From a virus (lineage: Duplodnaviria > Caudoviricetes), in the IMG/VR virus record IMGVR_UViG_3300047554_000738, positions 1-55,683 of that record: a stretch of DNA of 55,683 bases. One strand, written 5' to 3'. The translations under genes were made by a program, and so were the position numbers. The notes under the pieces were generated by a model. It did no database searches. It was not told where the DNA came from and saw only the letters and a list, made by a program, of their open reading frames with translations. Below, one piece after another: positions 13,659-52,711 of this stretch; within the stretch, counting starts at the first letter, position 1, and each line of letters opens with the position of its first letter.

Positions 13659-13834
13659 ACAACAAGGCATGTGGCAATAGCAATACATGTGATTTAACAT
13701 GTGCGAGGAAGGGGAGACAGAACAGTCCTCTTTGGTTCGGAGCCTGGATTGACGGCACGGCTAAGGAGGACTGTGAATTTAGGCAGTTGTTAAGAGATGA
13801 TAAATTATTACTTAAACTATTCGAGGATTTTTGA
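13619..13834 (+). CDS. Small Cys-containing hypothetical protein
   Basis: Four Cys; TGATG coupling to next gene. Confidence 0.6.
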   Translation: MDDKIPKATVKEIDNKACGNSNTCDLTCARKGRQNSPLWFGAWIDGTAKEDCEFRQLLRDDKLLLKLFEDF

Positions 13835-14966: not shown

Positions 14967-14991
14967 TGAAAAGATAAAGTGCTGTCTCTAT

Positions 14992-15030
14992 AATATAGTG
15001 TGGTTACCCAACCACGCTATATTTTTTTTT
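14992..15030 (+). terminator. Rho-independent terminator ending the early/replication block
   Basis: AATATAGTGTGGTT-ACCC-AACCACGCTATATT stem followed by T run. Confidence 0.9.
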
Positions 15031-15038
15031 GGTAAGTA

Positions 15039-15069
15039 TTGCAAGTTGTTTATATTTAGCATATATTTG
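15039..15069 (+). promoter_or_regulatory. Promoter of the structural operon
   Basis: TTGCAA-N17-TATATT; also matches Bacteroidota-type TTG-N20-TAnnTTTG (TATATTTG 15062-15069); GAGGAGG RBS follows. Confidence 0.7.
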
Positions 15070-15084
15070 TATTGAGGAGGGAGC

Positions 15085-23063: not shown

Positions 23064-23299
23064 TGGAGCATTGTAAGTTCTTTATCAGCGAGAAATGCAG
23101 ATGTAAAGCAAAACAGAGAGAAGTATTCGGAATAATCCCTGACAGTATTAAGAGAAAAGGGATGAAATATAGCAAGATGTGTAAGAAATGTGAATATAGG
23201 CAAGAACATGACAGCAGCAGAACTAAACCAAGCGATAATCAGCAGAGCGAATTCTTATATCGGGCAGAAGGAAAAGTCGAGGAACTCCGGCTTTTTTGA
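23063..23299 (+). CDS. Small basic Cys-rich protein
   Basis: GGAG RBS, TAATG coupling; C..C.C...CKKC; overlaps endolysin start. Confidence 0.45.
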   Translation: MEHCKFFISEKCRCKAKQREVFGIIPDSIKRKGMKYSKMCKKCEYRQEHDSSRTKPSDNQQSEFLYRAEGKVEELRLF

Positions 23300-24876: not shown

Positions 24877-24885
24877 GAGAATATA

Positions 24886-25089
24886 ATGGCAAAGTTAATG
24901 AAAATCACACCTGATAAAACTGCTGTAAAGAAACAAAGTCCTTCTAATATCAAGAAGGAAGTTGAGTATATAGCCAGCAAGGTAAATCAGCAGAAGAAGA
25001 ATAAGGAATTGGAAGAACAGAACAGAAAAGAAAAAGCAGCAGCTAAGAAATCAGGTTCTTCGGGTGGATATGGTATAGTAGAAAGATAA
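24886..25089 (+). CDS. Small basic protein (67 aa)
   Basis: AGGAG RBS, TAATG coupling. Confidence 0.7.
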   Translation: MAKLMKITPDKTAVKKQSPSNIKKEVEYIASKVNQQKKNKELEEQNRKEKAAAKKSGSSGGYGIVER

Positions 25090-32740: not shown

Positions 32741-33796
32741 ATGGCAACAAATGATATTGTATTAGCACAATTAGATGCGAGTTCTGACTTTCAGATGCGA
32801 GCTCTCACAATGGCAAAAGGTGGCTTAATCACAGGAAATGCTTCAGGAGTGGCAACATTACTAAGTGCAGGCACTGATGGCTATATGCTTGTTAGAGATG
32901 ACGTAGAAGCCACAGGTTTAAAGTGGGTAGCTATTTCAGCAGGGCATACACAGAATACAGACACAGGCACAACAGGTAATACTTTCACTATTGACAGCGA
33001 TAGTACAACAGGCAAAATGATACTTGATGTAGCTTTGGGTGCAAGTGACAATTCAATCACATTGACAAATGAAGCATTAACAGGCAATAGAACTTGGACA
33101 TTTCCTAACACAGATGGCACAGTAGCGTCGCAGGCTTATGCACAAGCGTTATTTGCTTCTAACGATGCTATGCTATTCAAAGGCACAATCGGCACAGGCG
33201 GTACACACACAATTGCAGCGTTTAATGCTCTAACCACCTATGATGCAGGATGGACATATAGAGTAATTGAAGCAGGAACAATCAGAGGTAATGTATGCCA
33301 AATCGGTGATTTGGTTATGGTCATAGTTGATAGAGCAGGTTCAGGTAATCTTGATTCTGATTTTACAGTAGCTCAGACCAATCTTGATGGTGCTGTAATT
33401 GGTCCTGCAAGTGTTTCAGACGGTTATTTAGTTCTATTCGATGGGACAACAGGGAAGCTTATTAAAGCAGGCACAGGAGCGCCAGGAACAATGGCTTATG
33501 AAGCAGCCACCGATTATGTTGCCAAATCACTTTACGATGCAAACAGCATACTTTACGCTACTTCTGACAACACACCTGTTGCACTCACAGTAGGGGCAAG
33601 TACGATTGTTGGTAGAAAAGCATCAGGTGATATAGTAGCATTGACACCTGCAGAAGCTATGAATGTATTATATGTAGCTGCACCTGCAAGCAAAACAGCG
33701 GCAGGCACAACAGGGCAAATTGCTTGGGATGATAGTTGGTTTTATCTGTGTGTAGCGACTAATGATTGGAAACGTACACCAATAATGTACTGGTAA
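32741..33796 (+). CDS. Tail fibre protein
   Basis: Gly/Thr/Ala-rich fibre motifs (GTDGYML..D.....GLKW, FDGTTGKLIK, GQIAWDDSWFYLCV). Confidence 0.75.
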   Translation: MATNDIVLAQLDASSDFQMRALTMAKGGLITGNASGVATLLSAGTDGYMLVRDDVEATGLKWVAISAGHTQNTDTGTTGNTFTIDSDSTTGKMILDVALGASDNSITLTNEALTGNRTWTFPNTDGTVASQAYAQALFASNDAMLFKGTIGTGGTHTIAAFNALTTYDAGWTYRVIEAGTIRGNVCQIGDLVMVIVDRAGSGNLDSDFTVAQTNLDGAVIGPASVSDGYLVLFDGTTGKLIKAGTGAPGTMAYEAATDYVAKSLYDANSILYATSDNTPVALTVGASTIVGRKASGDIVALTPAEAMNVLYVAAPASKTAAGTTGQIAWDDSWFYLCVATNDWKRTPIMYW

Positions 33797-35166: not shown

Positions 35167-35469
35167 ATGGAAAAAGAGACAACAGACTTAATAGCAATAA
35201 TCGCAGGATTAGTTGGCATAGGTGGTGGTATATTTATGACTGTAATAAAGATACAGATTGCTGCTATGTTCAAGAAGTTCGAAACACTATGGGATACCCA
35301 AATTGGTCAAACAAAAGATATCAAACAAAATACTAAAGAAATAGGTTTGTTATGGGCAAAGACAAATGCACATGAAAAGCATTTAGCCAAACATGACAAT
35401 GAACTAAATTCTATAAAGACAATGCACGATATTACTCACCCTGATAAACCAATACCGTCATATGATTGA
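35167..35469 (+). CDS. Single-TM coiled-coil protein (holin/XhlA-like)
   Basis: N-terminal TM LIAIIAGLVGIGGGIFMTVI followed by a helical region. Confidence 0.5.
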   Translation: MEKETTDLIAIIAGLVGIGGGIFMTVIKIQIAAMFKKFETLWDTQIGQTKDIKQNTKEIGLLWAKTNAHEKHLAKHDNELNSIKTMHDITHPDKPIPSYD

Positions 35470-35629
35470 AGAAGAGTATATATGTATTAATGGGAAATAC
35501 ATTCCATTAAGCGAGTATCCTGAATCAATACCAGAGATACTGCCAAGAAAAGGTTGGAAATTAAGTTTTTCAATTAAACTAAGTAAGATAATGAAATTGA
35601 TTAGGAGGATACATGGGATATTCAGATGA
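35462..35629 (+). CDS. Small hypothetical ORF (55 aa, not in ORF track)
   Basis: MIEEEYICINGKYIPL...; fills the gap exactly; no clear RBS. Confidence 0.3.
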   Translation: MIEEEYICINGKYIPLSEYPESIPEILPRKGWKLSFSIKLSKIMKLIRRIHGIFR

Positions 35630-36759: not shown

Positions 36760-38421
36760 ATGGCAAGTGTACAAAGAACAGGGTTTCAGGACAATACAGG
36801 TGGTATAGATAAAGCTATAATGACCTCAACAGCAGGTATGGCTGACAATCTTGGCAAAGCTGTTGATTTCGCGAGAGAACAAAGGTTACGCAATACAGCA
36901 GCTGCAATGGATATACTCAATGGCATGGCTGCCAATCCTGAGAGATTCAGGGACAAGAATGGTGCTGCTGAACTTACAATCGATGCTTTTGGTGGTTATA
37001 ACGGTAACAAGCAATTTGATTCAGGCAGGACTGCTAAATATGTAGATTTATCAAGAGAAGGTACAGGATTTAATTCGACCCAAAACGAATTGAACAAGGA
37101 AGCTAATGCAAAACAAGTATTAGATGCCCAAAATGCAAGAAATAGTTTGTTATCTCCTATACCTGAATTGCAGCAACAATTAGCTCAGGGTGGTGGCAGT
37201 CCTATACCGACAAGGTCATTAACAGATACTAACCAATTAGTTGATGAGAAACAGAATAAAGCGATGGCTTCCGCTTTTGACTACCAACAGAAAATGAAGG
37301 AATTGCAAAAAACAGATAAAGACGGTAAAACAGAATACAACCGAACTAAAATATACGAACAGTTAAAGAAAGAATTCCCGGATATTGAAAAAATGTCATT
37401 ATCTGAAAAAGAAGATATTGTCAATAACCGCATTGAAGATTTAGATAAGGAGAAGAAATCCTTGTTGGAAGACCCTGACTTAAAGGCAGCAGGTGGTGTT
37501 GATGAAAACGGTAATTTCAGATTAGAAGGTTGGAGCAAAGACAAAGATGGGAAAATGAAAATCTCCACTTCGCAAAACAATAAGGATTCTCAAACAGTTG
37601 GTAGTTCAATAGGAATGAAAGAATCATTTTCTATGACTGCTGATGTTGACCCTACTGAATTAACACAGGTAACAGGCGAGAAAACGACTACTTATGACCC
37701 TACTCTAAAAGATGAGATTAAGACTGATGTAGCCAGTTTGAGTTTCTTGTCTACATTGAAACAGGCAAGTGATAGGATGTCAGGAACTTATCAGGCAGGA
37801 ACACAGAATCAGTATGACAATCTTGTCAACAAGAGACTGGCATGGTTAGATGATGCTCAGAAAGAGATGAACAAGAAGGGTACTGTGAAAGAACTTATTA
37901 CGGCAACCCAAAAGATTGGTGGAGCAAAGAAGAGTATTACTCATGAAGTTGATACAAAAGATAACAGGAATATCAATAATGTTAATGTTGGAGGTAGTTC
38001 GTTCAGTGCGAACACAAATAATGGGGGCGGGGACAAGGTAAAAACAGGGACAGTTATTATAGATGGAGCAGCTGGTGTTGATTTTGGGAATGTCTCTATT
38101 TATAAAGACGCTAATGGGAGGTCTTTGTTCAGTGACGAGACTCCACAATTCCCAATAAATAGAGAATGGCTACCAAAAAATAAAGTGTATAATGGTGGGT
38201 GGAAGGTTTCTGAATTTAACGAAGAGATGAAAAAGAAAGGAAGCGGATACACTATGTCAGAAGGTGGAGTAATATCAAAAGGAGGTGTAAAATTAGGTTT
38301 TTATACTTTTGAAGATAACAAATTAAAATTTAAAGCAAGTCAGGGAGCCCCAACAAATTGGGTCGCAGATTTTACTGGTATTGATTTTAAAGAGTCATCA
38401 ACTACTGGAAGTTCAATTTAG
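36760..38421 (+). CDS. Putative internal virion (ejection) protein (553 aa)
   Basis: Position, composition, AGGAG RBS. Confidence 0.6.
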   Translation: MASVQRTGFQDNTGGIDKAIMTSTAGMADNLGKAVDFAREQRLRNTAAAMDILNGMAANPERFRDKNGAAELTIDAFGGYNGNKQFDSGRTAKYVDLSREGTGFNSTQNELNKEANAKQVLDAQNARNSLLSPIPELQQQLAQGGGSPIPTRSLTDTNQLVDEKQNKAMASAFDYQQKMKELQKTDKDGKTEYNRTKIYEQLKKEFPDIEKMSLSEKEDIVNNRIEDLDKEKKSLLEDPDLKAAGGVDENGNFRLEGWSKDKDGKMKISTSQNNKDSQTVGSSIGMKESFSMTADVDPTELTQVTGEKTTTYDPTLKDEIKTDVASLSFLSTLKQASDRMSGTYQAGTQNQYDNLVNKRLAWLDDAQKEMNKKGTVKELITATQKIGGAKKSITHEVDTKDNRNINNVNVGGSSFSANTNNGGGDKVKTGTVIIDGAAGVDFGNVSIYKDANGRSLFSDETPQFPINREWLPKNKVYNGGWKVSEFNEEMKKKGSGYTMSEGGVISKGGVKLGFYTFEDNKLKFKASQGAPTNWVADFTGIDFKESSTTGSSI

Positions 38422-38429
38422 GAGATATC

Positions 38430-39038
38430 ATGGGACTGATAAATGAAAATAAGAAAATAAGGAAAAATTCGGAAGAAACGACAAAAACCGGGGGTTCTTC
38501 AGCCACTGCACGTAAAGATAGAGAATCTGCATTGAAGAAACTCGAAGAGTTGGCTCATGTCACAGCAGGGACTGACGAGAATGTTAAAGGAGAAGGCAAA
38601 GACCCGAATAAAAGGATAGCTTCTTATAAGCATTATGTTAGCAGATACCGGAAAAACAAACTAACGGATGCTGATAATGCTTTGTACAATACACTAACGC
38701 CTGACGAACAAAAAGGAATTCAAGCTTTACTGTACCACGATAAAGAAACACGTAGAATAGAGAGAGAAGAAGGTGTTGACCATGAAATTGACAGATGGGC
38801 AATAGACAGTGGTACATATAATAAGAAATCATCCAAGACGGGCAAAACTGCCCAAACCAATACAAATGGTGCCTCAACTAATAAAAACGTTGCTACGGTC
38901 ACGCAAAGCCCTAAAATCACGGCTCCTAAGCAAAGTCCGTTGGCGAACTTATTCAAACAAGACAGTAAAAAAAAAACGGTACCAGTACCCAAACCGGAAC
39001 CGAACCCATTTCTCCCCTTGGAGAAGCTAATGTCATAG
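38430..39038 (+). CDS. 202-aa protein; probable true N-terminus of the giant virion RNAP protein
   Basis: Strong AGGAG RBS; contains A10 run where the giant ORF frame opens. Confidence 0.75.
   Translation: MGLINENKKIRKNSEETTKTGGSSATARKDRESALKKLEELAHVTAGTDENVKGEGKDPNKRIASYKHYVSRYRKNKLTDADNALYNTLTPDEQKGIQALLYHDKETRRIEREEGVDHEIDRWAIDSGTYNKKSSKTGKTAQTNTNGASTNKNVATVTQSPKITAPKQSPLANLFKQDSKKKTVPVPKPEPNPFLPLEKLMS
38967..38976 (+). promoter_or_regulatory. A10 candidate -1 frameshift / transcriptional slippage site
   Basis: GAC AGT AAA AAA AAA ACG; the -1 frame is closed by TAA 38966-38968 and then open to 52711. Confidence 0.6.
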
Positions 39039-39148
39039 ACAATCAACAGACTGTAGATTTATATAATACTAAGCAGTCTGCTCCCTACAATTACTACGAT
39101 GTAAATAAGAAACTTATCACAAGCACCGATAAAGGTACTGCTCAATGG

Positions 39149-42100
39149 ATGCACCAAATGGCAGACTATGATGATAAGTTGAAACAACCTTCTCAGGAAT
39201 CTTTACTACTCGGTCAGAAACTTGCTAAAACAGGTGGTACTACTGCAGGGCCGTTTGGCCTGTCTTATGATATGATGCACCCGATACGGCCTGAACCTGT
39301 CGCCCCTAAGAAATTCGATAAGGAAATCAATGACTTACTTAGCAATACTGTTAAATTCAGAAAAGATAAAGCAGGACTTAAGTGGCAATACACCTTAGAC
39401 CCAAAAGAGATTGAAGCTTCTGAAAAGATGCTTGATATGTATTGGCAGGATAAACTCACAGAATTTGGCAAGAAAGGTGGTTATGCTAAGGATATCAGAG
39501 AAGGTGGTACTTATTCTGCATTGCATGAAACAAGAGGATTCTTCTCAGGCTTGGCTGAGTTCTTTACAGACCCTATAACAGCAATAGCGAGGACACAAAC
39601 CGGCACGTTCCATGAAAACAGTGAAATGAAAGAGATAAGAGAATTTACTAAAGCATGGATGGCAGCTAAGGAAGATTTGAATGCTCTCAAATTGAAATAT
39701 AGAACTGAAGATTCCTACCGTAAACCTGTAGCCGAACAAACTAAGTTTTTACAGAATCAAATAGCAGGGACAGGCCACGATTCGAAAGCTATGACCGATT
39801 ACAAACCTGATGAATGGAAACCGAAGGAACCGAAACCTGCTTATGATGTTGATTATGATTATGATGCTGCTGATGTAACTGAGTTGTATGTGAATAAAGC
39901 TGCGAAAGGTGCTTTGGTAGGCATAGCTGAAGGAGTGTTGAGAACCAATATCGTAGGCAATACAAGTGGTGTTGAAATGCAAGACCACTTAGCAAGATTT
40001 GTCCAAGCAAGTCAGGATGGGATTGATTCCGAAAAAGCAAAAGAAATAGCAGGATATATCCAAAACAGGTCTGAACAGGGTGGAGCTATCCAGGATGTAG
40101 CTATCAAGACTATTGGTGATTTGGTAGAAATGACAAGTTCTATGTATTCCCCTGTTGGTGGTTTTGCATTAGGAACAAAAGCTTTCAATGCAGCATATCA
40201 GGCAGCTAAGGCATCTAAGTTTGCAAGGATATTGAGAGCTGTGGATGCAGGGAAATTGACTAAGATGAATCCTGAGTTTAGAAAAAGATATGAAATATTT
40301 AACAAGATATTAAACCCGAAAGCAAGTGCTCCTGTGAACGGTAGTTATATACTGCCGAAAGTGTCTGACATGATTGGGACTAAAAGCGAATATATCGGCA
40401 GATTGGTAGCTTCAAGTTTTGTTGACCAGATGCTGACAGCAGACCATAAACTAACACCTGATGAAGTTATAGAGAACTTAAAGAACATGACAATATTAGG
40501 TGGTATGAACTATGCCTTCTCGAAAGCTTTTATGAAAGGTGCACAACATTTGTTACTCACAAAGACTTTGGCAGGGACTAAGATAGGTGGCTTGGCTCAG
40601 AAACAGTTGAACACTACTGCTGCTGCTATGGTAGGAATAGGACAGTTGGTAGCTCAACCTGCACAGAGTTTGGTACTAAACAGTCTTGATGGCAGGGATA
40701 TAACAGCAGAACAATTTGTTGCTGATATGATTATGGGTTTGGGTATGTCTTATGGTGATTTCTATAAGACAGCACAAGCAAAGGGTGATTCGTGGAAAGT
40801 CAAGAAGTTCGATGAAATCCTGAAAGAGAATTATGACGAAATGGGTTTTGTCCCGAATGTCCCTATAAAAGACCAGACTAACCGTCAGGAAAGTATGGAA
40901 CAGCAAAGTAAGGTTATTGAAGAAGTTGTTAAAACAACTCAGGAACAGAACCCTACCAAGGTAGTTAGAACTGTTCAAGGTACAAAAGATGGACAAGCAG
41001 GAACTATTATTATAGGAAAACAGACTTATGGTCAGGAATTAGTTGGTGAAACAAGAAAAAGATTAGGTCTCAAAGAAGATGAAGCTATAACCGGTAAACA
41101 TTTAATAGATGCTTTCAGTGATGATTTCAAGAAGTCAAGAGTTAAGAAAACTATATTCTCGTTAATCGGGAAGATAGCACCTGATGTCAAGGTAGAATTG
41201 TCGGAGGATATAAATGCACCTGCTGCTTACAAAGACGGTGTGTTGTATCTGAATAATAAAGATGCTTACACACTCAAAAAGGGTGGTATCGGCAAAGCTG
41301 CTACTGTCACTATTGCTCACGAGTTAGTACATGGTTTAGTAGAAGAAAGACTGAAGAATGACGAAGTGTTTGGCAAGAAGATGTATGATATATACTATAA
41401 ATTCAAAGAGAAAGCATCCAATTGGTTAGAGCATCATCCTGACGCTTTTAATTCTATGTCGGAGACTCAAAAAGAAATGATAATGAAGATATTGGGCAAC
41501 ACTTATGAAACAACTGATGAATCAGGGCAGGTAATAAGAGAGATTGATGATGAAGTAAACTTGAATGAACTAATAGCTATCATGTACGAACCTTCAACTG
41601 CTGCCAATACAGTTCGGAAGTTTTTGTACACGGTTGACCCTTCTTTAAAGAATGATATATTAAGCAAGATAGGTGGAGCACTAGGTATTGAATCGGATTT
41701 ATTCAAAGAGATTGATAATGTAATAGTCAATTCAGAAAAGACTTTAATCAATGACAGGCCTGAAGCTTACAAACTATCTGAAGCAAAAGAACCGACAGCA
41801 CTCCCGGGTGAACAAGACCTATATGATGAAGAAGGGGATATGCTCGGCAGTAACGATGATTACGACAGTCCTTTTGAAATGTCCAAAATGTCCATTACGG
41901 AAGCTATGGACTTTATGAGTGCTGAAGAGAATTTCACAAAAGTTGCTGAAGTAAAGAAGGCATTAACAACTGAAGTAGAAGAAGAAAATATAACTGAATC
42001 AAGGAACAGGGATTTTGAAGTTGAGGTTAAGGTTAATTCTCTCAAAAGAAGGTTAGAAGTTGCAACTGATGAAAGACTTGATAAATTGTTAGCATCCACT

Positions 42101-45100
42101 GATGATGAAATTAAGCAGCATATTGCCAAATATGTCCAAGATGCAACTGAACAGCAGAACACTTTTAGAAAAATCAAGAATCTCCGTAAAGTAGAATCAC
42201 TTGGTATAAATGTTACTTTAAGTAAAAAGAAAGGTATTTCAGTAACAAAGGTAGCTCCTATTAACGGGATGACACCTAAAAACAGGCCTGTAAAGGGTTA
42301 TACAGGTAAACAGGTATATTTAGATAAGGGACTGGCTTTAATGGCCGTAGAAGCGACAGGAAGTGGCTTATTTAATGGCATAGGGTTGAATACCTTAGCA
42401 GAATTGGCTAATCCTGACAATATCACTCTAATTGAAGGTTATTATCCAAGTAGTACAAAGAAGGTAGGTGATAATTTTGTTACAAGTCCGATTAAAAACA
42501 AAATATCAGATAAACTTGACCCGAACATATTCGCAACTACTGATTTAGGTGGGAAGTTACTTGCTCAGGGTTATTTCCTTATGCCGAAAGTTAAGGGACA
42601 GAGAGCTATTAAATTGCCAGGGATAGCTGAAACGTTAAAAGACCGCAGGAACTTTGTAACCGGTATTGATAATTTCTTTATTAAGAAGATGCTTGTGAAC
42701 GAAGCTACTTATGATTACAATTATGAGAAAGCTACACAGATTAAATCGTTCATGGAGAATTTCGATTCAGGGAAGTTACTAAAAGTCATAACAAATAAGA
42801 TAAATGCCGAAATGGAAGGCAGGGAACTCCCTTTCTATGTAAAAGACATAATCAAAGACGGTGAAACTCCCGAGAAGATAACAGCACTCACCAAGCAGGC
42901 AGAAGCTTTTAAACCGATGATGGATGAAATCAAACAGATAGTCAAGAAATATTACACAGACAATACAGGCAAAATAAGACTACCTGAATGGGTTAATGAA
43001 AAATCTGCTATTCCTGACCAAGCTGTTTACGATAGATTAGTGAGAGTTATTTACGGTTTGACTGACAATGGTTTCAAAACTTCATGGAACAAAGTTGACA
43101 GTAAAGAAGTCACTCCTGTCAAATCTACTGATAAGTATTTGAACATATTGACTGCAGACCATTATAACAGATTAGGGGATATGGGACAATTAGCTGACTT
43201 AGCAGGGGATATCCGGCTTGAGACTGGCGGCTATGACACAGACCATATGAAGCAGAAATATGGCATGGATGTGAACTCCGATGGAGATGGTGTATTAAGG
43301 ACATTAAGTGTATCTGATGATTATTTAAAAGATAACTTAGGTTTCTCAGATGAAGATATTGCAGAATATACACGGTTTATTACAATGTTTTCTGAACAGG
43401 AAACTGATGGTGTGCTAATGTCACTTAATGACAATACATATAGTTTGTTAGCCAAGACACTCGGAATTAAAGAAGATGCATGGCAGAAAGTACCCGGGTT
43501 GAAACCGAAAGGTGTTGAATTTAACAATGGGAATGTTCGCATAACAAAAGGTATGTTATGGAATATTAACAATATGAAAGATATTGCAAACCGTAATCCA
43601 TGGTTAGCTAAGATTATACAAGCTGCTAAGGATAATAACATAGCAGTCCTTTATATGCCAACTGCAAGTAAAGGTAAACATACTGCAAAAGTTAAGTTTG
43701 TCGATATTGATGAAAAAACAAGAGCAGTTGTGGATAATGACAATACTCTGTTGTCAGTTGAAATCAAATCAGGGGATAAATGGAAAACTGACCCTGATGT
43801 CACAAAAGCTTATAAATCAGAATTTGCATTAGGGTTTATGAACGGCATTGTTCCTGAATGGGCAATAGGGCATATGAAGATAACAGGTGATGATGCTCTG
43901 ACTTTTGAGAATTATGTGCATGGTTCCGATATTGCATTAGGAGCTAATGGATTTGAAACAATCTTAGCCACTCAAAGAACGAGTAATTTATTTGCAGGAG
44001 AACAAGGGCAGAAGGTATATGATATTTTACAGAATCACATAAACTACAATATCCAAAAGAGTTCAGGTAAAATCAAAGATATCATGTTATCATCTGAAAT
44101 CGGAGCAAGAATGATGCAGGGTATTGGCAAACTTAAACCTGATTTCAAAGTGACTGCTGCCGAGCATAAAGCACTTGGCAGTTTTGTGCAACAGGCACTC
44201 GACTATTTCGAAAGACAAATTGATGCTGACAGGACAGATGATACTATCCATACTTACGGTGAAAATGCTTACGTCCTATACGACAGGTTATCACAAATGG
44301 TAGATAGCAGAGGGAATTTTCTTCTGAACAAACTACCTTTACTGATTACAATGAACAATATACTCGCAGGCAGGACTTTGACCGAAGGCAACAATAGTTT
44401 GGGTGCAACTTTAATGAGATACGCTGTTGAGGACATGATAAAAGGTAGAGTGCCTGTAATGGCTTCCAAGATAATGCCTGACTTCAACGCAGAATCTGCT
44501 GTAATCTATACTATCAACAAGATTGCACAGGATAGGTTAGATGAAGCGATGAACAAGGATATTGATGCAAGAGACCAGAATGGCAGGATTATATGGAATT
44601 CTCAAAAACAACAATTATACCGTGACCTTGTTAAAATGGAACTTGGTTCTATGTATGGCATCGAAAACTATGACGAGCATGTAGAAGTTTACGGCATAGC
44701 TAATAAAGGCACAACCGAGATAGAAGGTTTTGAAGTAGCGAAGGAAGTAAAAGCTTTAACTGCTTCAATATTGACACCAAAAGAGAGGTTAGACTTACTC
44801 GGCAGCAAGTTCATTGACGAGAATGGCAAATTGCGTAATCGTGGTGTGATACTTGGTAGAGATAATTACGAAAAGGAAATTAAGTATAGACAAAAAATGC
44901 ACAGATTATATCCTGACAAAGGGTTTGATAAACCGTTAATGCCAGGCGATAAAATGCTATTTGTCAAGATACCTTCTGATGACTATACCAATACTTTGAT
45001 GCCTTTATACTTTGCAGGAGTGACCGAGCAGGAGGGTGTGGTTATAACTGAAAGTGGTATTATCAAGTTTACAGGAGGTGATTTTGACGGTGACGGAATA

Positions 45101-48100
45101 ACTAAGTTTATGGTTGACGAGAATCTCACATTTGAACAATACGAAGAAGTATTTGACCATTTGTTGTCTTTGCAACCTGAAATTCAGAATGGCAAGAATT
45201 TAGCCAACGACCTGAAAAAGATGTGCTATACCAAAATAGGTAACGAAAGGATGATAAACCGTTATCTCGGAGTACCATTTAAGGACGACAACAACAGCCC
45301 TCAATTTGCAGGATTAGGCAGGAGATTAGCAGGGCATCAGGTAGGACAAGACCAAGGTATTGTCGTAATAAACAATATTGCGAGAGCGTTCCAACAGATA
45401 AATAATGATATATCCGCAGGCAAAGCATCTGATGTTATAACCAAGAATGAACTTATAGATATGCTTCCTGAAGGATTTGAATTTGGGAATATCCCTGGAT
45501 TCGAATCACTGCAGGGTATCAAAATGAATATAGATATAGAAACAGTGAAATCAGCTATATTCTCATTTCTCAAGCAGACTTATGTTGATACTTATGAAAT
45601 GGTGCCTTTGGACAGGTATCAGGGTGTTATTGCAGGGTTAGTGAATGATTTCGAGTTAGTGTACGATGAATCAAGGAATGTTAACCAAGATGGATTCCCT
45701 GAAAGACTTTCATTATTCCATTTAGGAGGTGAGTTTAATCCTACGATGGAGAAACCTGCTGACTTTGACAAGTTAACAATGATGAATCCGAACTACAAAG
45801 GCCAGGAACTGAAGTTAATGTTAGGCGAAGCTATCTTAAAGCACATGTTCAGTATAGCAGGTATTAATTATAAATCATTGGACAAGGTAGAAAATCCGCA
45901 TGAGATGATAGACAAAGTAATGGAAACTACCAAGGTGGAGAATCCGGGGAATACTTATACAAGAACATTAGAAGCTGTAAGGGATATTCTAAGAGACGAA
46001 ACTGTAAAAAAACCGGAACTACCTCCAATTGATGTACCATTAGAAACTGACGTGTTTATGGAGAGAACTACTCCACAAGCAGAACAACCTAAACCTATTG
46101 AACCGGTAGAGGAAGTTACCAAACCTGAACAGGAGATGACAGAAACTCAACCACAAGAACCGGAAGCAATTGCTAAGGTAGGAGAAGAACCTGCAAAACC
46201 TGAATTTGTCCCAACAGCAGGGAAGATGCTAGAATCTCTTAAAGTACCTATGGGAGCTCAATATGGTATATTGCAAGGGTTAAAGAAGAGATACCAAAGA
46301 GCATCAAAGTTAATTTGGGGAAACACTATGTCGGGTGAGGTTTATGACCAAATCCGCAATAGTGATTTAACTAATAATGGCATGTATAATGAGGACGATG
46401 TGGTAGGCATGTATCCTGATTTCTTGTCTGAACCTGACTGGATAGAAATTGACAAAGCTATTGCAGGGAATGTCAAAGGGTTTATATTAAAGACCGAGAA
46501 TAAGAAACATAACAGTAAGGAAACATTGCCTTTATATACAGCGATGCAGATAGCAGATTATTTACAAGAGAACGGTTATACCAGATGGACAAACAAGAAA
46601 GGTGAATTAACGGACAATTATGTTAGAAAAGACATTTTAAAGCCTTCTACAGAGACTTTTACTCAAGAGGTGGCTTCTGATATGCCTGAGCAGATAAAAA
46701 CGCGACAGGAAGCTTCTACTGAGGTTAAATCTGCAATACCGTCACTCAAAGATATCAAGATTGACACAAGTAAGGCAAAAGGTGCAGGTGCTATTGCAAA
46801 AGCTGTTGCTGATATGAAATCTCCTGTCGGAGTAATTAACGGTGGCTCTTATATCAAGACTAAGGTTAACAGTGAAGGGGTATATGAGGATGATGCTAAC
46901 CTTATGGCTCAGATTAGAGAGAAATACCCTGATGCTATTGTAGTTAAAGAAGCTATGGAACCGACCGAAATAGACAAATTACGTGACAGGACTTTTGTCG
47001 TATTCAACAAAACAGGCAATAAAGCAAATGTCAACTATCTCGCTAAGAACAAATACGATTATGTAATTGCTGGGTATGAAGATGTTGGTTTCTCTCTTGG
47101 CGGAGAATCTTATCCTTCCTCTAACGGTCTTGAAATTGCATCAACTATATTAAGGTCCGAGATAGCTAATGAAGTGCAAAGTTTAGTAGGAACTAAACTT
47201 AGGGATATCCTTAACAAACAAATTGTTAATGGGACTATGGCTAAATACAGTTTTGATGATTTCTACGAATCGAAAATAAAGAACAAGAAAGGTTATTCAG
47301 TTAGAGGGCCGATTGAACTTGTCCAGGGTTTGATATCGAACATTATGTACGGTGGTAAGCCGACTGCTTCAGAAAATGCTTTATCACCTTTCGAGATTAA
47401 AACGGAAGATGGCAAAATAAAGAACAAAGATTTTCTCAAAACTTTGACTGAATTTAAAGATACTGAAGGTCATTATTTGTTTGCTCAGGACAGGTACATA
47501 CCATTCAAAATAGCTGCAGGTACTGTATTGAAACACATGATTGACAACAATGTACCAAGACTTGGGGATTATGTATTAAGAAGCAGCAACGATATAGCTA
47601 CTTTGCTATATTCTGATGGTGTTATATCAGATAACCAAGGGAATAGTACAACACTTGAAAATGTATTTGCAGAGAATGGCGAACTGCAAGCTGCATGGAT
47701 ACCTGCCGAGTTCTTGCAAAGTCCTGATTTCAGAGATTTGATTACATTCAATAAAGGTATAGATGCGAGAGAACTCGAATTACTCAAATCTAAAGTGTTA
47801 GTTAATATAACAGATTCGATGCACAGTATATTATCAAACTTTGGTGTCAATATTGACAAGGGACTTCTTTACACTGCCAATGCTTTTTATGAAGTCCAAA
47901 GAGATAAGGCATTTAGAGAGAAAAATCTGTATAAGGGTAGTTTAGCTAATATGCGTGGTACTCACATGGCAGACCCGAAATGGAACTATGCTTATGAAAC
48001 AGGACAATGGCTTACTAAAACTCACTTAGGAGGTAAGACAAGCGAAGATATCATGCGAGAGCATGGTAGTAAGTTTCTTAACGAGCATTCTGATACTAAT

Positions 48101-51100
48101 ATATGGCAACTAATCAAAAGTGCAAGAGACGCAGGTATTATTCCGAAAGTTGCTAATGATGTTACATTGGAAGACTTTATGATTGACAAGCTGAACAAAA
48201 AGGGTGAAAGTATAGGGTTAGAAATGTCAGCTTCTTCTATTGAAGATGTGTCATGGAAGGATAAATCAGTGAAAGACTTTTTCCGGACTATCCGTGAACA
48301 TGCGGCTAAATCATCTAATCAGAAAATATTAGATGCTGTTAATAAGCCAATGTCAGAATGGGACAATGAAACTATGATGGCAATTAGCAGAGAGATTATA
48401 AAACCATATCTTGAAAAGGTACTGCCACCATTAGCATTAGGTACAGGTAAAGGGACTATCGAAGAAGCACAAAGCTGGTCTGATTATACAATTCAGAAAC
48501 TCATGGCAGGGTTCATGCCGGGTAATTCGGGTTATATGAATAAACTTGAAGCTATGTATGATAAAATATCAGGCGAGAATTCACATAGCAGAACAATTGC
48601 CAGAAACTTTATGAATCAAAACTATCTTGCATCAATAGCTGAACTAATCTTAGAATTAAGAAAGACTAAATCAGGAACTTGGTGGAGCAATATCAAAATA
48701 TGGGGTTCTAAGTTACCTACTGAGATGTTGAAGAGACATAGTATGAACAAACAGGTCTTCAATGCTACTGATGAGATTATGGATATTCCTGAAGTAGTTA
48801 ATGGCGAAGCAGGGCAGGTTGATACAATCAGATTGAAAGATGAAGCCGATTGGGAATTGGGAGTGCAATTACCTTATGTTTTGTTGCCTAAACAGTATCC
48901 AATGATATTGGCAGCTACAAGATTGACTAAATTGAAGAACAATCTTGCAGCAGAAACTAACAGGATTAAAGAGGATTTCGAAAGTATAGAGAATAATACC
49001 GATACTGAAATTGCTTCAGGTATCGAAAGTTTGGATAATGTAATTATCGCTAAGAACAAAGGGTTTGATGAATATACGCAATCGGATGTTGTTGACCCGG
49101 GTAATTTATTAGATGAGATTAAATTCCAGACCAAAACTAAGAACGGTGTTGTGCAGGATGGTAAGGTTACATTCAATATCCGTAAACCTGAGAATAAGGT
49201 TGAATCTATTATATTCGATGTCCAGAATGATGCTGATTTGAGAGATGGTATAAATACTTTCCTCAATAGTTGGAATGCTAATGTTGACCCGACTATAAAG
49301 ACTAAGTTATTCAATTATATCAAATATAAGACTGCATTAGAGAATTATCGTAACATGCTTGTCAGTTATACTAAAGCTATCGAGAGTTTTGCTAATAGGT
49401 ACAAAAATGGTAGAATAGATGGTACAGGTATCAATGCCAAGGATAATTTGCAGAGACTTAACAGTTTTATAGCGAAGATGGGCAAATTGAATCCGACTGA
49501 AGTGGCTATGATGACAAGAGATATCAGAGATGATGTTGACATGAGTGATGCTGTCCAATATTTCCAGGACAATTTTATAACTCCTAATGAAGAATCGTTT
49601 ATTGAGCAAAGGAACATTCAATTTGAATTCAACTCGAAACTGAGAGAGAAGTACAAGAATTACAGCAGAGTGAAGAAAGGAAGAACAGGGCAGGGTGATT
49701 TCATGGGCTCTATCCGTACTGAAATCAAGAAGTTATTAGCAGGAGAAACTAAACAGAATGCAACTGCCGGTGAAGCTATTGTATCTGAAAATGACAGGTA
49801 TGAGATAGACAGACAAATTAAAGCAGGGACCGGTTCAACTTATGTATTAAGCAGATGGGGAGAACAGATAGCAAGTATTATTTCCGAGAATATTAATGGT
49901 ACTGGTTTAATAGTAGGCAAAGATGCAAACGGCAAAGCAGTAACCAAGGCGTTGACAAGTGCGGAACAGAAACAATTGTTCAATGAAGTCTTATCTGATG
50001 TCCGGAATCTTATTGATGAATTCTACAAAGGGGATAATGCTTATTACGATTTATTCCGTAAACTCGGGATTAAAGGTTATGACCAAGCGTTACATTATAT
50101 CAAAACTGCTAAGGAGTGGGATGCCGTTCTGAATGCACGTAGAGAAATTAGCAAAGCAGTCAAGAATCAAATGCACAAATTAGCAAAGGATGCTCAGGTT
50201 AATTACTTTAATCAGTTTGTTGCAAGTAAAGATGTGACCGAAGATATTAGAGCACATTATAACTTCACAGAACTCTTCCAGAAGGTGTTTGCGGACAAAA
50301 CCGATGCAGAGGGTAGGGTAGTGGATAAATTCTTTACTACAAGGCTGGATAAGGCCTCAAATGACATTGATTGGGTTATGACCAATTCATTAATTGATTT
50401 GAACAATACCATGCTCCACAATTATCTTGAATTTGATAGGGAAACAAGCAAAATAGCCGATATGAATACAATCTCTGTATTGACCAATACAATTGGTATG
50501 CCTTACAAATATGGGCAGGAATTGCCGATTGGACAGTTTAATGATGAATTCAAAGCTACTGAACTTACTGAACCGGGTAGTTATTATATACCATCTGACT
50601 TGAAAGTAGGGGATATCGTTACTATGAGATTAAAGGATAACAAGACATTCACTGCGAGACTATTATGTGGTGTAAAATGTAAAGAGAATGTATTAAACAA
50701 GGATACCAAGAAAGCAGAGGTACGTGATGTGCCTTATTATGTGTTCAGCAACGATATAAACAATTCACCGAATCAATCATTTATAGCTGCGGATATGATA
50801 GCCACTATGAGAAAAGGTGAATCACCTGATTGGACATTAAATGCAGTCCAGGGAAGAATGCGGCATCATATCCAAAATTCTATATCTGATATGGCGGAAG
50901 AGTTTAAACATTATATAACACAGCGAGTTAACGATAAAGGCAGGACAGACAACATAGCACAAAGACGTGCTTCTAATAAGACTATCCATTATATCCAGGA
51001 CTTTAACAATGATAAGAGCGTGGCTAAATTTGTCAGATGGGGACAGAAAGTAGCGGATGCAGGGCAGGTAGGTTTATACTATCTCAGAGCAAGACACATA

Positions 51101-52711
51101 TTAACAGGTCTATCGGGTGTAGCATTTAGTGGCAGTCTTGGTGGTGCTGTTTATTATGGTGGTAAAGGAATAACCAAATATCTTATGGGAATAGGCAAAC
51201 TGTTTCTTCAAAATAGAATGGGTTATACCGATAATCTTGTTTATCATCCGGTAGTCAAACGGAACCAACGTGCAATAACTGCTCAATTAATGAGAGGTCT
51301 AAGTGGTGTAAAGAACATTTGGTCAGGTGCTGAAAAAGAAGCGTCAGCTACAATTGCAAGGCAGCATATGAGTGAACTTGTGGCTTTGGAAAGTACTTCT
51401 GAAATGGGACATCTTAACGAACAAATGGGTGAAGTTATTGACCGTATCATGCAAAACAATGAAGAAGGGCATAAATACTTTAAAAACAAGCTGCTTAAAA
51501 CGAGGGCAGTAAATAAGTTAGCTAAAGGTATTAAAGAGATTACTCAGGAAATGACCGAAGATACTGAGATTGCCGAGCAAATGAGGGAAGGTGAAGAACA
51601 TGTATCAAGAGTTGTTAGGAAAGTTGCTGATAAAATTGAATGGCTTAAAGTCACTATGAAAGAAGCTGAATTTGATAATGGTGAATATGTAATGAAAAAC
51701 AAATCAGTTCATGTACCTAAAATCAAAGGGTTGTCTGACCACGACAGTTTGACGGTTATTACTTTATGGGACCAACTATTATATTTGGCTTCCTTAAGAG
51801 GTGGTATCCTAACTTCCGAAAAGACTTCAGCCGGTGCTGCTGTACGCAAATTCTATGAAGAGAAAGTAAAAACATTCTCTGATGAATATGGTGGGCATAT
51901 AAGTAATTCATTTACAAGTAACTTATTAGAGAGAGAAGCATCTATGGGTTACGGTAATTACAAACGGAACATGGCACAAAAGACATGGTTAATCAGGAAC
52001 TTAAACAGATTTTCTCCTTTCGGATATGAGAAAGGGCAGAACATCACTAAGTATAACATGTCAAGACAGGATATGTATAAAGCTTACAAGGAATCCAATG
52101 GTGCTGAATTTGACCGTTTTATAGGCGACATGGCTCAATTGGGGATACCTATTGGCGAGTGGTTCCTCGAACAAAGCAATTCGTTACCAAAAGCATTTGC
52201 AGTCCGTTCAGTTCAACTGGCTATTAAGACACTAATCAAGTATGGTGCTATGGGAATATTAGGCACTGCCGGTAAAGCTATCAATACTATATTCAGTGAC
52301 CCTTCTGAAGATATTGACGAGATACTGTCATTACAGGGATTCGCTTTCGGGCCGTTAGAAATGTCAATGCAAATGATAGCTACAATAATTAACGCTTTGT
52401 TAGTATCCGAAAGCATAGGTGATTTAACTGAAGCTAAGAAAGCAACTATTGCAAGTGACATGTTAAAGATGCCGGGACAATCTTTGCGTGGAGTTATGGG
52501 TAAAGGAGCAACTGATGCTTTAAATGCTCTAACTGTAACATTATATGCAGCTTGGAAAGGAATGACAGGAGAAGAACTTGCAGGTATTGTAGATAAAACT
52601 AAAAAAATAGAAAAGAATAATTTGAAAACTGCAACAGATTTAGTAAATTGGATGGCACCCGGAGTGGGAACTATCACAAATGAATATATTAACCAATCAT
52701 GGAGGAAGTAA
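39149..52711 (+). CDS. Giant virion polyprotein with zincin-like protease and two-barrel (beta/beta' fused) RNA polymerase domains
   Basis: HELVH (41318-41332) with downstream NELIA; ETDG, TKGML, PTASK, GDKMLFVKIP and GGDFDGD (45080-45094); frame open from 38969. Confidence 0.85.
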   Translation: MHQMADYDDKLKQPSQESLLLGQKLAKTGGTTAGPFGLSYDMMHPIRPEPVAPKKFDKEINDLLSNTVKFRKDKAGLKWQYTLDPKEIEASEKMLDMYWQDKLTEFGKKGGYAKDIREGGTYSALHETRGFFSGLAEFFTDPITAIARTQTGTFHENSEMKEIREFTKAWMAAKEDLNALKLKYRTEDSYRKPVAEQTKFLQNQIAGTGHDSKAMTDYKPDEWKPKEPKPAYDVDYDYDAADVTELYVNKAAKGALVGIAEGVLRTNIVGNTSGVEMQDHLARFVQASQDGIDSEKAKEIAGYIQNRSEQGGAIQDVAIKTIGDLVEMTSSMYSPVGGFALGTKAFNAAYQAAKASKFARILRAVDAGKLTKMNPEFRKRYEIFNKILNPKASAPVNGSYILPKVSDMIGTKSEYIGRLVASSFVDQMLTADHKLTPDEVIENLKNMTILGGMNYAFSKAFMKGAQHLLLTKTLAGTKIGGLAQKQLNTTAAAMVGIGQLVAQPAQSLVLNSLDGRDITAEQFVADMIMGLGMSYGDFYKTAQAKGDSWKVKKFDEILKENYDEMGFVPNVPIKDQTNRQESMEQQSKVIEEVVKTTQEQNPTKVVRTVQGTKDGQAGTIIIGKQTYGQELVGETRKRLGLKEDEAITGKHLIDAFSDDFKKSRVKKTIFSLIGKIAPDVKVELSEDINAPAAYKDGVLYLNNKDAYTLKKGGIGKAATVTIAHELVHGLVEERLKNDEVFGKKMYDIYYKFKEKASNWLEHHPDAFNSMSETQKEMIMKILGNTYETTDESGQVIREIDDEVNLNELIAIMYEPSTAANTVRKFLYTVDPSLKNDILSKIGGALGIESDLFKEIDNVIVNSEKTLINDRPEAYKLSEAKEPTALPGEQDLYDEEGDMLGSNDDYDSPFEMSKMSITEAMDFMSAEENFTKVAEVKKALTTEVEEENITESRNRDFEVEVKVNSLKRRLEVATDERLDKLLASTDDEIKQHIAKYVQDATEQQNTFRKIKNLRKVESLGINVTLSKKKGISVTKVAPINGMTPKNRPVKGYTGKQVYLDKGLALMAVEATGSGLFNGIGLNTLAELANPDNITLIEGYYPSSTKKVGDNFVTSPIKNKISDKLDPNIFATTDLGGKLLAQGYFLMPKVKGQRAIKLPGIAETLKDRRNFVTGIDNFFIKKMLVNEATYDYNYEKATQIKSFMENFDSGKLLKVITNKINAEMEGRELPFYVKDIIKDGETPEKITALTKQAEAFKPMMDEIKQIVKKYYTDNTGKIRLPEWVNEKSAIPDQAVYDRLVRVIYGLTDNGFKTSWNKVDSKEVTPVKSTDKYLNILTADHYNRLGDMGQLADLAGDIRLETGGYDTDHMKQKYGMDVNSDGDGVLRTLSVSDDYLKDNLGFSDEDIAEYTRFITMFSEQETDGVLMSLNDNTYSLLAKTLGIKEDAWQKVPGLKPKGVEFNNGNVRITKGMLWNINNMKDIANRNPWLAKIIQAAKDNNIAVLYMPTASKGKHTAKVKFVDIDEKTRAVVDNDNTLLSVEIKSGDKWKTDPDVTKAYKSEFALGFMNGIVPEWAIGHMKITGDDALTFENYVHGSDIALGANGFETILATQRTSNLFAGEQGQKVYDILQNHINYNIQKSSGKIKDIMLSSEIGARMMQGIGKLKPDFKVTAAEHKALGSFVQQALDYFERQIDADRTDDTIHTYGENAYVLYDRLSQMVDSRGNFLLNKLPLLITMNNILAGRTLTEGNNSLGATLMRYAVEDMIKGRVPVMASKIMPDFNAESAVIYTINKIAQDRLDEAMNKDIDARDQNGRIIWNSQKQQLYRDLVKMELGSMYGIENYDEHVEVYGIANKGTTEIEGFEVAKEVKALTASILTPKERLDLLGSKFIDENGKLRNRGVILGRDNYEKEIKYRQKMHRLYPDKGFDKPLMPGDKMLFVKIPSDDYTNTLMPLYFAGVTEQEGVVITESGIIKFTGGDFDGDGITKFMVDENLTFEQYEEVFDHLLSLQPEIQNGKNLANDLKKMCYTKIGNERMINRYLGVPFKDDNNSPQFAGLGRRLAGHQVGQDQGIVVINNIARAFQQINNDISAGKASDVITKNELIDMLPEGFEFGNIPGFESLQGIKMNIDIETVKSAIFSFLKQTYVDTYEMVPLDRYQGVIAGLVNDFELVYDESRNVNQDGFPERLSLFHLGGEFNPTMEKPADFDKLTMMNPNYKGQELKLMLGEAILKHMFSIAGINYKSLDKVENPHEMIDKVMETTKVENPGNTYTRTLEAVRDILRDETVKKPELPPIDVPLETDVFMERTTPQAEQPKPIEPVEEVTKPEQEMTETQPQEPEAIAKVGEEPAKPEFVPTAGKMLESLKVPMGAQYGILQGLKKRYQRASKLIWGNTMSGEVYDQIRNSDLTNNGMYNEDDVVGMYPDFLSEPDWIEIDKAIAGNVKGFILKTENKKHNSKETLPLYTAMQIADYLQENGYTRWTNKKGELTDNYVRKDILKPSTETFTQEVASDMPEQIKTRQEASTEVKSAIPSLKDIKIDTSKAKGAGAIAKAVADMKSPVGVINGGSYIKTKVNSEGVYEDDANLMAQIREKYPDAIVVKEAMEPTEIDKLRDRTFVVFNKTGNKANVNYLAKNKYDYVIAGYEDVGFSLGGESYPSSNGLEIASTILRSEIANEVQSLVGTKLRDILNKQIVNGTMAKYSFDDFYESKIKNKKGYSVRGPIELVQGLISNIMYGGKPTASENALSPFEIKTEDGKIKNKDFLKTLTEFKDTEGHYLFAQDRYIPFKIAAGTVLKHMIDNNVPRLGDYVLRSSNDIATLLYSDGVISDNQGNSTTLENVFAENGELQAAWIPAEFLQSPDFRDLITFNKGIDARELELLKSKVLVNITDSMHSILSNFGVNIDKGLLYTANAFYEVQRDKAFREKNLYKGSLANMRGTHMADPKWNYAYETGQWLTKTHLGGKTSEDIMREHGSKFLNEHSDTNIWQLIKSARDAGIIPKVANDVTLEDFMIDKLNKKGESIGLEMSASSIEDVSWKDKSVKDFFRTIREHAAKSSNQKILDAVNKPMSEWDNETMMAISREIIKPYLEKVLPPLALGTGKGTIEEAQSWSDYTIQKLMAGFMPGNSGYMNKLEAMYDKISGENSHSRTIARNFMNQNYLASIAELILELRKTKSGTWWSNIKIWGSKLPTEMLKRHSMNKQVFNATDEIMDIPEVVNGEAGQVDTIRLKDEADWELGVQLPYVLLPKQYPMILAATRLTKLKNNLAAETNRIKEDFESIENNTDTEIASGIESLDNVIIAKNKGFDEYTQSDVVDPGNLLDEIKFQTKTKNGVVQDGKVTFNIRKPENKVESIIFDVQNDADLRDGINTFLNSWNANVDPTIKTKLFNYIKYKTALENYRNMLVSYTKAIESFANRYKNGRIDGTGINAKDNLQRLNSFIAKMGKLNPTEVAMMTRDIRDDVDMSDAVQYFQDNFITPNEESFIEQRNIQFEFNSKLREKYKNYSRVKKGRTGQGDFMGSIRTEIKKLLAGETKQNATAGEAIVSENDRYEIDRQIKAGTGSTYVLSRWGEQIASIISENINGTGLIVGKDANGKAVTKALTSAEQKQLFNEVLSDVRNLIDEFYKGDNAYYDLFRKLGIKGYDQALHYIKTAKEWDAVLNARREISKAVKNQMHKLAKDAQVNYFNQFVASKDVTEDIRAHYNFTELFQKVFADKTDAEGRVVDKFFTTRLDKASNDIDWVMTNSLIDLNNTMLHNYLEFDRETSKIADMNTISVLTNTIGMPYKYGQELPIGQFNDEFKATELTEPGSYYIPSDLKVGDIVTMRLKDNKTFTARLLCGVKCKENVLNKDTKKAEVRDVPYYVFSNDINNSPNQSFIAADMIATMRKGESPDWTLNAVQGRMRHHIQNSISDMAEEFKHYITQRVNDKGRTDNIAQRRASNKTIHYIQDFNNDKSVAKFVRWGQKVADAGQVGLYYLRARHILTGLSGVAFSGSLGGAVYYGGKGITKYLMGIGKLFLQNRMGYTDNLVYHPVVKRNQRAITAQLMRGLSGVKNIWSGAEKEASATIARQHMSELVALESTSEMGHLNEQMGEVIDRIMQNNEEGHKYFKNKLLKTRAVNKLAKGIKEITQEMTEDTEIAEQMREGEEHVSRVVRKVADKIEWLKVTMKEAEFDNGEYVMKNKSVHVPKIKGLSDHDSLTVITLWDQLLYLASLRGGILTSEKTSAGAAVRKFYEEKVKTFSDEYGGHISNSFTSNLLEREASMGYGNYKRNMAQKTWLIRNLNRFSPFGYEKGQNITKYNMSRQDMYKAYKESNGAEFDRFIGDMAQLGIPIGEWFLEQSNSLPKAFAVRSVQLAIKTLIKYGAMGILGTAGKAINTIFSDPSEDIDEILSLQGFAFGPLEMSMQMIATIINALLVSESIGDLTEAKKATIASDMLKMPGQSLRGVMGKGATDALNALTVTLYAAWKGMTGEELAGIVDKTKKIEKNNLKTATDLVNWMAPGVGTITNEYINQSWRK

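Follow-up and report, generated by a model that had tools for sequence, protein, structure and literature searches.

The locus analysed here raises the question of how translation reaches a giant ORF whose reading frame opens inside a shorter upstream ORF, at a run of ten A residues, long before the first start codon that the giant frame offers. The window, i.e. the whole stretch of DNA that was analysed, is a complete IMG/VR virus record of 55683 bases, linear and rated 100% complete. A first-pass annotation, made from the letters of the window and a list of its ORFs, had proposed that the A10 run joins a 202-residue ORF to the giant ORF, taken to encode a virion RNA polymerase (RNAP), by a -1 ribosomal frameshift or by transcriptional slippage. 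We have asked how well the junction, the codon usage around it, the assemblies, the RNA signals and the relatives agree with this proposal, and with the alternatives to it.

Genomic setting of the A10 locus

All gene-like ORFs of at least 90 aa in the window lie on the + strand, the GC content stays within 34-42% across it, and the A>T and G>C skews are constant. The genes recognised encode a DnaB-like helicase, a portal, a major capsid protein, a tail protein and a large terminase, with the last four positioned as follows:

15085-17310: P22-like portal
18517-20004: SU10-like major capsid protein
32741-33796: tail protein
53583-55400: large terminase

Portal, capsid, tail and terminase genes being recognisable, the A10 locus is therefore placed in the late/structural module of a podovirus-like phage. 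This phage had neither similar DNA (blastn) nor similar protein (tblastn) among 50,697 GenBank phage records, and the Rfam and tRNA scans of the window were empty, giving no known intron or RNA element.

Two open frames meet at the A10 run

The features of the junction are listed below, with the frame of the 202-residue ORF termed frame 0 and that of the giant ORF termed frame 2.

38420..38424, + strand: AGGAG Shine-Dalgarno (SD) sequence of the 202-aa ORF, 5 nt 5' of its ATG; duplex energy -7.3 kcal/mol, near the median of 50 ORFs
38430..39038, + strand: short-form ORF of 202 aa (P0001), frame 0; its codons 1-182 would be the N-terminal part of the putative fusion
38966..38968, + strand: TAA, the last stop in the giant-ORF frame, overlapping the first two A of the run
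38967..38976, + strand: A10 run, the proposed slippage site, inside ORF 38430-39038; the only run of 10 in 55683 bases
38969-38975: A_AAA_AAA heptamer (X_XXY_YYZ) in frame 0, with AAA codons at 38970 and 38973
38975..39148, + strand: leader of 58 codons in the giant-ORF frame, with no stop, no ATG, GTG or TTG, and coding-like codon usage
39036..39038, + strand: TAG ending the unshifted 202-aa product
39149..39160, + strand: candidate independent starts of the giant ORF, namely ATG 39149, where the database calls the gene, and ATG 39158, which aligns with residue 1 of the only homologue
39149..52711, + strand: giant ORF (P0004; 4520 aa), which takes up 24% of the genome and lies in the late/structural module, flanked by portal, capsid and terminase genes

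The anatomy of the junction is as the first-pass annotation had it, each coordinate of its layout (AGGAG, ATG 38430, A10, TAA 38966-38968 and the final TAG) being confirmed from the sequence. The arithmetic held as well: a -1 shift or one extra A yields 182 residues, up to the third Lys codon, plus 4578 from 38975, i.e. a product of 4760 aa, and the unshifted product ends 20 codons past the run. In frame 0, the A10 run spells three Lys codons, and its last A begins a Thr codon. The run sits exactly at the edge of a 70-nt overlap between the two open frames, as evidenced by the distribution of stop codons. Frame 0 is free of stops until 39036, with 8 of them from there to 39600; in frame 2, 24 stops interrupt the 180 codons ahead of the run (38430-38968), ending with the TAA at 38966, after which 4580 codons are stop-free and the frame is open from 38969 to 52711. 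Reading the TAG at 39036 as a sense codon was considered and rejected, as the two ORFs would still not be joined, with frame 0 stopping again at 39054 and 39102.

The first ATG, GTG or TTG of the giant frame is the ATG at 39149. This start was said in the first-pass annotation to have no ribosome binding site, a claim that is overstated: the SD is indeed weak, but an AAAGG sits 13 nt upstream. Duplex energies to a generic anti-SD were -3.9 kcal/mol for ATG 39149 and -3.1 kcal/mol for ATG 39158, vs. a median of -6.95 kcal/mol for ORF starts, and an SD as weak as or weaker than that of ATG 39149 was found at 26% of 50 listed ORF starts, including that of the terminase gene. A weak SD at 39149 is thus unexceptional, which favors a reading of the locus as two independent genes, with the giant protein made from ATG 39158 (or 39149), the 202-residue ORF being lineage-specific, the leader being a relic or an accident, and any slippage product being noise. 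Two features of the junction argue against this reading: 1) the stretch from the upstream stop to the first start codon of the giant frame, 60 codons free of stops and starts, is the longest among 50 ORFs, the next being 26; 2) the only A10 of the genome lies exactly at the edge of the 70-nt frame overlap. Taken with the points for and against it that are given in the sections below, we consider two independent genes a rather unlikely arrangement, albeit one that deserves to be taken seriously.

Within the leader lies a GGAG (39020-39023); 6 nt further on comes ATG 39030, which is in frame 0 and only two codons ahead of the TAG that ends the short ORF. This SD-start pair can encode a dipeptide only, and it may be coincidental or may serve to load ribosomes close to the giant gene. 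The presence of the same GGAG and of near-cognate codons in the leader also speaks for initiation at a near-cognate start inside the leader, e.g. ATA 39035 (11 nt after the GGAG) or ATT 39008, whereby the giant frame would be entered with no frame change at all. Bacteria very rarely initiate at ATA or ATT, and the position of the GGAG suits ATG 39030 (frame 0) better; a start of this kind would also leave the open, coding-like frame back to 38975 unexplained. On balance, we find this explanation hardly credible.

The leader of the giant ORF has coding-like codon usage

To evaluate the leader as coding sequence, we used a codon log-likelihood score trained on the other genes. In sliding windows, the frame-0 score was positive in every window from 38430 to 38940, and the signal switched sharply to frame 2 at the run, the window starting at 38940 still favoring frame 0 and that starting at 38970 favoring frame 2. 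Stop codons were then left out of the model, a frame thus gaining nothing from being open. On this score, the leader (38975-39148) reached 7.76 as compared with a mean of 12.25 (sd 5.94, n=258) for in-frame pieces, 23.6% of which scored lower, and none of 18 same-strand off-frame open pieces matched it. The part of the leader that lies in the gap, comprising 37 codons past the short ORF (39038-39148), scored 7.66, which is the median of 418 in-frame pieces and was matched by 0 of 90 off-frame pieces. Non-coding nulls, drawn with pooled trinucleotide frequencies or with the base composition of the region itself, matched the leader and gap-part scores in 0.3-1.4% of 20000 draws. With a looser control, in which antisense and unlisted small ORFs were mixed in, the leader score was matched by 41 of 225 pieces (18%), and for the 20 codons directly 3' of the run, the score was close to zero and uninformative in either frame (frame 2, 0.06; frame 0, -0.96). 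These data support the view that 38975-39148 behaves as coding sequence in the giant-ORF frame, and that this leader, having no start codon of its own, has its sole entry from ORF 38430 at the A run. The same codon usage, matched by 0/18 and 0/90 off-frame controls, is difficult to reconcile with two independent genes.

The late region is densely coding. The replication and structural region, taken from about 13.6 kb onwards, has six other gaps of 70-212 nt between listed ORFs, and in five of them an open frame comes with a start codon; the leader stands apart in having none. Given that the genome has little non-coding sequence, an untranslated spacer of 110 nt that is nonetheless open and coding-like would be unlikely. 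Gaps of more than 100 nt between listed ORFs also occur elsewhere in the window, a point in favor of two independent genes that is offset by the small ORFs, each with its own start, held by the other gaps.

Some of these gaps have features of their own. A T9 at 15022-15030 lies just 5' of the portal gene, in the only gap without an open frame (14967-15084), and may be part of a terminator or promoter region. Downstream of the gene at 23737-24876, the frame remains open for 70 codons past its TAG (24877-25089), with ATG/GTG/TTG codons at 24886, 24898 and 25009; this stretch is a candidate for read-through or else a small ORF (about 67 aa) that fills the space between two genes. Small ORFs of this type also occupy the gaps 13619-13834, 23063-23299 and 35462-35629.

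Position of the run as its unusual property

Matches to A9 or T9 number 4 in the window vs. 4.87 +/- 3.05 expected from shuffles; the A10 run as such is within chance, and its position is the unusual part. An A9 at 9099-9107 is in frame (Lys-Lys-Lys) inside ORF 8859-9404 and is accompanied by no frame break, and long A runs are therefore not always recoding sites in this genome. For the junction, chance is an unlikely explanation: the genome's single A10 is the very point where the frame and codon signal changes over, and it offers the only way into the leader.

The A10 run in the assemblies

If the true run were A11, the 202-residue ORF and the giant ORF would be one continuous ORF of 4760 aa, and homopolymer length is a classic source of sequencing error. 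The run was read as A10, with no indel and no differing letter, in a Logan contig from run X1 (32359 nt, depth 21.2) and in another from run X2 (1274 nt, depth 8.4). These contigs and the IMG/VR record all come from one freshwater sample, with one contig possibly being the source of the record, and contigs hide minority variants such as A11 reads. Run X3, from another study, contained identical pieces of the phage, none of them spanning the A run. As the same A10 is present in the X1, X2 and IMG/VR assemblies, which were made by two pipelines from two runs, an assembly artefact, named as the main alternative in the first-pass annotation, is unlikely as its origin. Systematic read error or a mixed population at the run is possible. 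Weighing the error-prone nature of homopolymers and the single sample behind all of the data against the agreement of the three assemblies on A10, and against the presence of the exact 202-aa product on 2 contigs in the protein database, we regard a true A11 as very improbable. In a separate observation downstream of the junction, a depth spike of 195 at 39843-39875 in run X1 is an artefact of a low-complexity stretch, encoding YDVDYDYDAAD, that attracts unrelated ATG-repeat contigs.

The A10 may also be real but no evolved device: a gene of about 4760 aa, normally uninterrupted from 38430, would recently have lost one base at the run or would carry a hypervariable, phase-type tract there, and the phage would survive by slippage and/or internal initiation. 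The frame and codon evidence is the same for this reading as for the fusion, and its plausibility is enhanced by published work: homopolymers of 10 are replication-slippage hot spots, which is named as a reason for their avoidance (PMC4066793), and translational or transcriptional 'correction' of such indels has been described (PMC5009743). This is countered by a consensus of A10 at depth 21 and at depth 8 in two runs, and by the called protein of the relative described below, which has no in-frame N-terminal extension of this kind. We deem a recent indel improbable.

Route of the frame switch

A -1 ribosomal shift on A_AAA_AAA and a transcript with one A added encode an identical protein. In canonical bacterial -1 cassettes, the shift is stimulated either from downstream, by a stem-loop or pseudoknot set off by a spacer of some 5-9 nt, or from upstream, by an SD-like element. 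Two structured regions were found near the run:

38977-39002 and 39009-39026, + strand: two small hairpins 3' of the run; -14.9 kcal/mol, z = -3.0, 2 of 200 shuffles as good
39047..39080, + strand: hairpin in the leader (CAGACUG...CAGUCUG); -10.7 kcal/mol, z = -3.25, 1 of 200 shuffles as good, no T tract

The two small hairpins begin 1-2 nt and 33 nt past the heptamer and are thus no convincing match to the canonical -1 frameshift stimulator; the 67 nt upstream of the run are unstructured (z = +0.94) and contain no SD-like element. The hairpin in the leader, 34 nt long with 7 perfect basal pairs, is located 70 nt after the run and 70 nt before ATG 39149, where it could make ribosomes or polymerase pause or could hide the start that follows. 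Scanning the + strand of 38900-39150 for sigma-70 promoters and terminators revealed nothing notable, and a terminator-like match on the - strand (38997-38982) was dismissed as merely the complement of the A run.

Bacterial RNA polymerase is described as slipping efficiently on 9 A or T with no other signals needed (PMC5009743, PMC4256274), in support of the first-pass statement that A runs of at least 9 promote RNAP slippage. The literature also indicates that A_AAA_AAA is much less shift-prone than A_AAA_AAG in E. coli (PMC5009743), and that E. coli polymerase, in one reporter study, prefers T over A runs for slippage (PMC6260861). The locus displays two of the features of a slippage site, namely a run of at least 9 A inside an ORF and a longer, coding-like product in the alternative frame. 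Given a run of this length and the lack of a convincing ribosomal stimulator, we favor RNA polymerase slippage as the likelier route over a -1 ribosomal shift.

Comparison with relatives

In a 5.8-billion-cluster collection, the giant protein (query: the leader plus the first 640 residues) had one homologue, P0003, a protein of 4562 aa that is about 60% identical over the whole length and comes from a Logan contig of 54746 bases. For the 553-aa gene just upstream, a homologue with 72% identity was found on a contig of equal length. Residue 1 of P0003 aligns with the Met at 39158 (BLASTP; query residue 64, E 3e-49), three codons after 39149. A start at the homologous Met is as would be expected under independent initiation at 39158, and it lends some weight to the reading as two genes; the relative was compared by protein only, and a gene caller would start likewise behind a start-less leader and a frame break. 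The called giant protein of the relative has no in-frame N-terminal extension, and a copy of the 202-aa protein was not recognisable.

Broader searches added little. With the 202-aa protein, phmmer against 1.84 billion cluster representatives returned the protein itself only, and a search of the ESM Atlas gave no usable lead. Peptide-pattern scans of IMG/VR (with four queries), of JGI metagenomes and of GTDB genomes yielded no relatives, nor did a scan of JGI metagenomes and IMG/VR for the exact flanks of the run with a variable gap; shorter or fragmentary homologues of the leader plus N-terminus numbered 0 among 7999 candidates at E <= 0.001. In the 90% cluster of the giant protein, the members P0005 and P0006 cover residues 1451-4520 and 3239-3692, respectively, and not the start.

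That the 202-aa protein is without a homologue, despite flanking genes that are 60-72% identical in the relative, is a further argument for two independent genes, and it weakens the earlier idea of a conserved N-terminal, capsid-targeting domain. The proposed shared N-terminal module is not detectably conserved. Overall, the comparative evidence is thin and points against the fusion.

Identity of the giant protein

The giant protein, whole or in pieces, matched no Pfam or PHROG family, and a PDB profile search with it gave 0 matches at E up to 1. Two motifs in it are conserved in P0003:

41318..41332, + strand: HELVH (HExxH)
45080..45094, + strand: DFDGD, with 0.004 expected from composition

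The DFDGD motif occurs once in each protein, at residue 1978 of P0004 and at residue 2024 of P0003. DFDGD/DFDxD serves as the catalytic motif in multisubunit RNA polymerases and also in gp66, the virion polymerase of crAss-like phages (bioRxiv 10.1101/2020.03.07.982082). A DFDGD or DxDxD motif for metal binding marks the two-barrel (double-psi beta-barrel) RNA polymerases, crAss-like virion RNAP among them, in which the active site is formed by two such barrels. An hhalign comparison of the giant-protein profile with the 2180-aa gp66 of phi14:2 returned a probability of 0.5%, an ESM Atlas lead to PF05183 stood at 0.84, under the 0.9 bar, and two AlphaFold2 models (1000 aa and 351 aa, from two-sequence alignments) had a mean pLDDT of 32.6 and 35.3, too poor for a fold search. 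Of the RNAP identity assigned in the first pass, the DFDGD motif stands as the sole basis, with no match by family, PDB or profile; an RNA polymerase may be called a reasonable guess. Together, HELVH and DFDGD suggest that protease-like and polymerase-like modules may be combined in one ejection-type protein.

Discussion

We propose that the 202-aa ORF and the giant ORF could constitute one recoded expression unit. Ribosomes would start at ATG 38430 behind the strong AGGAG; on unaltered mRNA, they would stop at TAG 39036 and yield the 202-aa short form, whereas on mRNA with one extra A (or two fewer) in A10 they would proceed through the 58-codon leader into the giant ORF. Alternatively, a -1 slip of the ribosome on A_AAA_AAA would give the same entry into the leader. 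The resulting fusion would be about 4760 aa, with its first 182 residues common to the short form, and an independent start of the giant ORF at ATG 39158 may exist in addition. From the arrangement of the DNA, we infer that slippage occurs at the run, that the fusion is produced and used, and that the two forms are made at some ratio. The recoding interpretation gains from a coding-like leader that is entered only at the A run and from A10 in two further assemblies, and it loses from a relative that starts at the Met matching 39158. On this account, the locus is a probable recoding or 'saviour-slippage' site, a judgement that we hold at roughly half confidence, and we see about an even chance that a fusion product is made through the A10 run and used by the phage.

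The first-pass annotation had gone on to ascribe a low copy number to the virion RNAP, a high copy number to the short form and a possible capsid-targeting role to their common N-terminal region, an account that is pure conjecture. A related scenario can be formulated after the G/GT pair of lambda, wherein an abundant 202-aa form would bind an assembly partner in the procapsid or tail, and a rare slippage fusion, via the same N-terminal module, would load a few copies of the 4,500-aa ejection protein with its DFDGD motif, which might be a virion RNA polymerase of a new type, with slippage on A10 setting the dose. We offer this scenario as a speculative one and think it unlikely to be correct in full.

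The implications depend on which reading applies. If the fusion is real, 1) the locus would be a case of a giant virion protein of a phage receiving both its dose and its N-terminal module through homopolymer slippage; 2) the annotation would be corrected for a gene taking a quarter of the genome; 3) a concrete test would be at hand of how very large internal or ejected proteins get addressed to the particle; 4) the locus would add to hints of unconventional expression in polymerase-like giant genes of uncultured phages, such as the broken RNAP ORFs reported in Zeta crAss-like phages (PMC7886860). If instead a recent indel is rescued by slippage, the locus would show how an abundant environmental phage tolerates such a lesion.

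Among known systems, one that is comparable in protein type is gp66 of phi14:2, which is likewise a very large protein among structural genes with a DFDxD-type motif, and for which no frame break is described in the accessible portion of the report (bioRxiv 10.1101/2020.03.07.982082). The giant protein is twice as long as gp66 and also has HELVH, and the hhalign probability between the two is as low as given above. Our search of the literature on frameshifts in phage virion RNA polymerase genes yielded, in the text examined, the broken RNAP ORFs reported in Zeta crAss-like phages (PMC7886860).

With respect to genomic setting, the G/GT pair of lambda resembles our locus in being part of a phage structural module, just upstream of a very long structural gene, and in combining an abundant short form with a rare long form of common N-terminus, such a pair being what is proposed here. 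According to PMC5009743, the lambda pair results from a ribosomal -1 shift near the end of G, before the tape-measure gene, in long-tailed phages. In contrast, the present window has a P22-like portal and an SU10-like capsid protein with no tape-measure gene identified, and the long form would include the giant protein itself.

With respect to mechanism, slippage on such runs is used by Thermus dnaX, IS elements and spa13. In Thermus thermophilus dnaX, the orfA-orfB genes of IS elements and Shigella spa13, a homopolymer of at least 9 A/T lies inside an ORF, as it does here, and the polymerase generates a mixed mRNA population from which two products are made at a set ratio, as we propose for A10; the run and the frame arrangement are conserved across many homologues in those cases, whereas here they are read at one locus (PMC5009743). 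Another close parallel is tssM1 of Citrobacter rodentium, in which an A11 run just before a stop gives two needed TssM length variants (PMC4256274). The differences are that tssM1 is a bacterial secretion gene with A11 and our locus a phage virion-module gene with A10; that slippage in tssM1 was proven by cDNA mass spectrometry and genetics and is deduced here from sequence; and that the long form here would be about 24x the length of the short form, unlike in tssM1. As in our locus, tssM1 has a long A run shortly before the stop of the short form; its two forms have a common N-terminus, as the two proposed here would have. Its description includes no SD-like or structural stimulator, and none was convincing at our locus. 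In tssM1, the frame is restored by extra A's in the mRNA to give the long form, which is the very step that we propose for the A10 run.
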